NCBI RefSeq assembly: GCF_003334785.1
Contig: NZ_QOWV01000076.1
Strand: one strand, 5' to 3'
Length of the DNA: 679 bases
Source: Escherichia coli
GTDB lineage: Bacteria > Pseudomonadota > Gammaproteobacteria > Enterobacterales > Enterobacteriaceae
In this document: positions 1 to 136 of the stretch, piece by piece
Numbering within the stretch: position 1 is the first letter of the stretch
Layout: each line of letters opens with the position of its first letter
The notes under the pieces: model-generated
Told to the model about the DNA's origin: nothing
Databases searched by the model: none
Seen by the model: only the letters and a program-made list of their open reading frames with translations
Made by a program: the position numbers and the translations under genes

Positions 1-136
1 ACTTCCGTCCCAGCCTTGCCAGATGTTGTCTCAGATTCAGATTATGTCGCTCAATGCGCTGAGTGTAACGCTTGCTGATAACGTGCAGCTTTCCCTTCAG
101 GCGTGATTCATACAGCGGCCAGCCATCCGTCATCTA
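1..136 (-). pseudogene. insB: insB 3' segment downstream of the in-frame TAG: open and conserved but separated from the upstream InsB frame; continues beyond the window
   Basis: Same frame as 134..427. Straight after TAG (136..134) comes ATG (133..131), then 43 more open codons to the edge: [44 protein letters not shown]. This matches the recalled InsB C-terminal region, so 1..427 together look like one insB gene interrupted by a single nonsense codon. Confidence 0.7.

Follow-up and report, generated by a model that had tools for sequence, protein, structure and literature searches.

The six IS1 copies of E. coli K-12 BW25113 have been studied in two 2025 papers from one group (PMC12428005, PMC12903888). 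IS1A and IS1E, the IS1R-type 'consensus' copies, are experimentally active and share a 768-bp plan of left inverted repeat (IRL), insA, slippery run and insB' (PMC12428005). They are autonomous, and their 232-aa InsAB' has zinc-finger (ZF), HTH and DDE domains, as in the IS1F plan. IS1F itself has 73 mismatches to IS1A (90.5% identity), adjoins the fec operons, and contributed no detectable insertions (PMC12428005). A strain keeping only IS1B, C, D and F gave essentially no IS1 insertions, and IS1B, C and D were also nearly immobile (PMC12428005). When InsAB' was overproduced in a strain without IS1A and IS1E, IS1F made up 44% of 48 sequenced insertions (PMC12903888). The explanation offered in the main texts of these papers is that substitutions have led to a non-functional or less functional transposase (PMC12428005, PMC12903888). 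The words 'premature' and 'nonsense' are absent from both main texts and 'amber' is absent from that of PMC12428005, the one searched for this word; of the passages displayed with 'stop codon' or 'truncated', none concerns IS1F.

The window, by which we mean the whole 679-base stretch of DNA that was analysed, differs from IS1F of K-12 MG1655 (NC_000913.3) at 2 of 679 bases. This K-12 copy (insA7, b4294; insB7, b4576) is the type-IV IS1 of Umeda and Ohtsubo 1991, and the 677 bases that it shares with the window include the TAG at codon 163, the IRL and the three bases of left flank. The two differences are A6C in K-12 against A7 in the window (position 364) and InsA Q49 in K-12 against a private L49 (position 476). 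Identity to K-12 IS1A is 89.6% at the DNA level. With at least 99% identity to K-12 IS1F, about 90% to IS1A, and an amber codon at Trp-163, the window belongs to the IS1F isoform. The fec-adjacent IS1F copies of E2865, ML35, O157:H16 98-3133 and O26/O103 strains are closer still, sharing 678 of 679 bases together with TAG and A7; position 476 is the sole difference between the E2865-type copy and the window. Intact IS1F-type copies form a further group at 99.0-99.4% identity, and these are found on plasmids of Shigella dysenteriae, S. flexneri and S. boydii (annotated 'IS1 family transposase', e.g. WP_094106546.1) and on an E. coli plasmid ('IS1-like element IS1F family transposase', WP_223718721.1). 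They resemble the window in architecture and in the context of codon 163, including GAGG and ATG, but differ from it in having TGG, A6C, InsA H34 and T52, and an open transposase frame.

The coordinates of the features are collected in Table 1. The two-frame organisation of IS1 is present, with the insB frame overlapping insA, and the InsA of the window carries P34, L49 (private), K52 and K86. The terminal inverted repeat of ~23 bp (GGTRATGCTGCCAACTTACTGAT) is the same as in K-12 IS1F; IRR lies outside the window and was found in full-length copies that are 99.9% identical. A sigma-70-like promoter match lies at the site where we would expect PIRL, the IS1 promoter located in IRL. The A7 run is a variant that still permits the -1 slip. 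An Rfam scan of the window gave no match, and plus-strand ORFs of 56-58 codons that run antisense to insB are without support. By descent the element belongs to the IS1 family, but it is defective and non-autonomous, its transposase frame being interrupted at codon 163 of 232. The window ends at IS coordinate 676, directly before coordinate 677, which is one of the few variable sites of IS1F-type copies (T/C; InsAB' residue 208 Leu/Ser); one might speculate that the end is an assembly break at a repeat-variant bubble.

Table 1. Features of the window, in window positions; IS coordinate 1 corresponds to window position 676
Feature	Window position	IS coordinates	Strand	Remarks
Whole window (679 bases)		1-676 of 768	minus	676 of 768 bp of an IS1F-type IS1 plus 3 flanking bases
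Flanking DNA, 3 bases	677..679			TTC on minus strand; outside IS1 left end
IRL, IS1 left inverted repeat	654..676		minus	GGTAATGCTGCCAACTTACTGAT...; alignment begins at annotated mobile_genetic_element IS1F, NC_000913.3
Sigma-70-like promoter match	642..669		minus	CTGCCA, 16 nt, TATGAT; in or near IRL; consensus match only
insA, intact	346..621		minus	91 codons, GTG start; zinc-finger and HTH repressor/IR-binding protein
InsA H34P	521	156		Within second Cys-x2-Cys knuckle
InsA/InsAB' Q49L	476	201		CAG to CTG (T on minus strand); private to window
InsA T52K	467	210
Programmed -1 frameshift run	364..370		minus	A7 (TTAAAAAAATC) versus canonical A6C
InsA N86K / InsAB' L87I	364	313		A6C to A7
insB-frame part of InsAB'	137..366		minus	Slip site to stop (residues ~86-162)
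Candidate first catalytic Asp, D109	298..296		minus
GAGG	145..148		minus	Within Phe-Glu-Val codons, 11 nt 5' of ATG
Amber codon TAG	134..136	541-543	minus	InsAB' codon 163; K-12 IS1F has TAG at these IS coordinates too
InsAB' W163*	135	542
ATG directly after TAG	133..131		minus	Conserved Met of W-M-T-D-G-W
Open insB frame 3' of stop	2..133		minus	Reads on to ...LGRK and exits window
Candidate second Asp, D166	127..125		minus
Candidate Glu, E191	52..50		minus

On the minus strand, the region around the stop reads ...TTT GAG GTC GTG GTA TAG ATG ACG GAT GGC TGG..., with the TAG in the insB/InsAB' frame. The original prediction had been made from the letters of the window, and our re-translation matched both its in-frame TAG at 136..134 and its protein sequence exactly. 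Its statement that a reference IS1 reads DVVIWMTDGW here proved correct as well, as K-12 IS1A reads SPFDVVIWMTDGW with TGG at this codon. Because TGG stands in the same context in the intact IS1F-type copies of Shigella and of E. coli plasmids and also in IS1A, the change at codon 163 is, as had been proposed, Trp to amber, through a coding-strand G-to-A transition. Apart from this base, the intact IS1F-type copies agree with the window throughout the 39 bases that were compared, GAGG and ATG included.

Counted along the frame entered by a -1 slip in the adenine run, the stop occupies codon 163 of the 232 in InsAB', and it removes exactly 70 residues, where a loss of about 70 had been predicted. 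With the stop read as Trp, Pfam assigned Zn_ribbon_InsA to residues 1-36, HTH_Tnp_IS1 to 43-86, and DDE_Tnp_IS1 to 102-232 (E=3e-73). The last of these spans the stop and bears out the claim that the frame is InsB-like on either side of it. The NCBIfam model transpos_IS1 was likewise matched over its full profile (239.9 bits against a cut-off of 100). The 162-residue product covers positions 1-153 of the 199 of this profile, keeping the zinc-finger and HTH DNA-binding part and losing more than half of DDE_Tnp_IS1. Within this domain, the motifs MDEQW, MTDGW and RIERHN point to D109, D166 and E191 as candidate catalytic residues, which we take to be the D-D-E triad. Reportedly, Ohta et al. in 2002 found the second D of this triad to be separated from the E by 24 residues; the computed spacing between D166 and E191 is likewise 24 residues. 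On this candidate assignment, the stop would fall three codons before the second Asp and one of the three catalytic residues would be kept. The view that this copy encodes a truncated, inactive transposase is therefore in line with a product that ends at residue 162 of 232 inside DDE_Tnp_IS1; because of this domain loss, the truncated InsAB' is predicted to be unable to catalyse transposition, which agrees with the published experiments.

To place the stop among other genomes, we compared the window by megablast with 5,426 complete E. coli genomes. There were many chromosomal matches at 99.9%, and every one of the matches listed bears the annotation 'IS1-like element IS1F family transposase'. 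In each of three unrelated strains, the match adjoins ykiE/fecI/fecR and is a pseudogene with the PGAP note 'programmed frameshift; internal stop'; base by base, all three have the same TAG and one mismatch, at window position 476. The curated record of K-12 MG1655 has 'insertion sequence:IS1F' with insA7 ('IS1 repressor protein InsA'), and its insB7 is an annotated pseudogene whose sequence carries the same TAG. A 61-mer centred on the TAG was the exact best match in 2,851 records of E. coli, with no more than 18 that may be partial matches; its TGG version was the best match in 4,233. The junction of ykiE with IS1F is found in 2,597 of the 5,426 genomes, and all nine fec-adjacent copies that we compared have a stop at codon 163. 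The TAG is a long-known, widely inherited defect of IS1F (insB7), present in about half of complete E. coli genomes, and the stop was already known from the curated K-12 pseudogene and from the PGAP flag in thousands of genomes. Literature searches on b4576/insB7 and on the linkage of fec and IS1 returned nothing usable. One MG1655 derivative from Boston (NZ_CP025268.1) has TAA rather than TAG at this codon, with the change at the equivalent of window position 134, which may reflect a deliberate recoding of annotated stops from amber to ochre.

The three flanking bases of the window agree fully with the flank that the fec-adjacent IS1F has on its ykiE/fecI side, which for three bases alone is weak evidence of location; the left flank, ...ggatggggatttc/GGTAATGCTGCC, is common to K-12, E2865, ML35 and others. 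Among the copies sampled, the combination of A7 and TAG was found only next to fec, and we infer that the window lies at the fec locus next to ykiE/fecI. The TAG itself occurs in at least eight other contexts. Its 61-mer is found exactly in 39 plasmid records, among them plasmids of Enterobacter roggenkampii and E. fergusonii, and it recurs in the chromosome of O104:H4 at a site away from fec; the non-fec contexts comprise the O104:H4 chromosome, IncF, IncY and IncHI1B plasmids and the E. roggenkampii mcr-10 plasmid. None of eight distinct non-fec contexts had a target-site duplication around the TAG copy, and several of these copies are truncated or are mosaics that include parts of other IS1 isoforms. 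On a plasmid of S. flexneri, an intact TGG copy is flanked by a target-site duplication of 8 bp, as a transposed copy should be. Because target-site duplications are absent and mosaic or truncated copies occur, these sequences are most simply read as a TAG segment passed between IS1 copies by homologous recombination; natural mobilisation of a TAG copy in trans would be the poorer explanation. A target-site duplication, 8-9 bp long in the IS1 family, is absent from the fec-adjacent IS1F too, its flanks being unmatched in the full-length relatives compared. The right neighbour of this copy is the yjhU side in K-12, and in most other strains it consists of IS3/IS5 remnants and a ymgB/ariR-like gene; this difference between K-12 and the others indicates a rearrangement at the IRR end.

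We regard it as very probable that the window is a fec-type IS1F with an amber codon at W163 and a dead InsAB', a non-autonomous fossil that is mobile only in trans. In this reading, one G-to-A transition would have turned the TGG of Trp codon 163, within the frameshift-dependent InsAB', into TAG. The element still encodes InsA and has its left end, and any frameshifted product stops at residue 162; the copy would be inherited along with the fec region. It would move only if an intact IS1 supplied InsAB' in trans, as for K-12 IS1F with overproduced enzyme, and the IS1F sequence may also spread via homologous recombination with other IS1 copies. The window lineage would have decayed further, through A7 for A6C, InsA H34P and T52K, and the private Q49L. 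The dependence on transposase in trans had been anticipated in the original prediction, and it is upheld by K-12 IS1F: with the identical TAG, this copy is natively immobile and was mobilised by overproduced InsAB' (PMC12428005, PMC12903888). The TAG is sufficient to explain the IS1F defect and could simply account for the lack of native movement reported in 2025. As the sole cause it is a candidate; IS1B, C and D, which are without the stop, hardly move either.

Set against the nearest intact (TGG) haplotype of the IS1F type, the window has five differences, every one of them nonsynonymous (Table 1). This pattern suggests that constraint has been relaxed across the entire element, on insA and insB alike, and it argues weakly against a domesticated InsA. 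A6C is found in both IS1A and IS1F of K-12, and the A7 61-mer is present in 361 E. coli records; judged from these records, A7 therefore characterises one sub-lineage among the fec-adjacent IS1F copies. Slippage, whether of the ribosome or in transcription, could be altered by this run. With the variant at base 476, no 100% match to the window exists in the 5,426 complete E. coli genomes or PLSDB, and a 30-mer with this base is absent from metagenome contigs and from GTDB species-representative genomes. Either a mutation private to the window or an error in base calling accounts for position 476, which has no bearing on the TAG. In two fec-adjacent copies there is a second stop, Q90*, in the insB frame (CAG to TAG, IS coordinate 322, equivalent to window position 355), which is silent in insA.

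Other explanations of the stop and of its consequences can be weighed against this reading. The original prediction had suggested a recent mutation or a sequencing or assembly error, with a check of whether the TAG is unique to this copy. An open, InsB-like frame 3' of the TAG would fit such an origin, and the window does have one base, at position 476, that was found nowhere else. The identical TAG is nevertheless carried by K-12 MG1655 and by about 2,850 independently sequenced complete E. coli records of many serotypes, as well as by the 39 plasmid records, and alignment to K-12 IS1F and other E. coli copies shows that it is not unique; we reject an error or a very recent private mutation of one copy, the probability of which is negligible. 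It is also very improbable, if slightly less so, that an active transposase is still made, whether by reinitiation at the UAG-AUG with complementing fragments, by amber read-through (natural or through a suppressor), or by both. The ATG does follow the stop immediately, with GAGG 11 nt 5' of it, as had been described; the 70 codons 3' of the stop are intact in full-length relatives; and laboratory strains of K-12 commonly carry amber suppressors, supE for example. However, the ATG and GAGG are ancestral. Because both are present unchanged in intact TGG copies (the ATG also in IS1A), they are not adaptations to the stop, and an evolved reinitiation signal is rejected; the reinitiation that had been put forward as speculative finds no support. 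At 11 nt, the spacing is also unfavourable for a Shine-Dalgarno site. The catalytic triad would moreover be split over two peptides, and a reinitiated fragment of 70 residues would have the candidates D166 and E191 but neither D109 nor the DNA-binding domain. Further nonsynonymous changes and the second stop Q90* have gathered in the lineage, and a K-12 strain with only IS1B, C, D and F had no detectable IS1 insertion (PMC12428005).

A different question is whether the copy has been kept because it is useful, with InsA or the 162-residue InsAB' acting as a trans-dominant repressor of IS1, or with the element serving the fec island as a boundary or in its regulation. The intact insA in every copy examined, the K-12 annotation 'IS1 repressor protein InsA', the Zn-ribbon and HTH domains of the truncated product and the holding of the element at one locus in 2,597 genomes would all suit such a role. 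Against it, the four changes that InsA has undergone in the window lineage are all nonsynonymous, H34P in a Cys-x2-Cys knuckle among them, which resembles drift rather than purifying selection, and linkage to fec together with the lack of excision explains retention equally well; we consider a useful role highly improbable. Just as improbable is a broader scenario in which the amber segment recombines into mosaics on IncF, IncY and IncHI1B plasmids and in other genera, and a 162-residue ZF-HTH product boosted by A7 dampens IS1 trans-dominantly. If this trans-dominant reading were true, IS1 activity would be damped in roughly half of E. coli strains, and the A7 sub-lineage would make more of the 162-residue product through easier slippage.

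Read as the fec-linked fossil that we prefer, the window is an ordinary dead transposase gene and carries little weight as a discovery. For IS censuses, TAG-bearing copies of the IS1F type are not to be scored as active transposase genes, and the TAG/TGG site makes a convenient marker by which, in either E. coli or Shigella, the fec-linked fossil is separated from active copies of the IS1F type. In UPEC957C, the fec-adjacent IS1F has an 18-bp duplication (ACATAAAACACTATCAGT) just inside its right end (IRR), which lengthens the annotated pseudogene.
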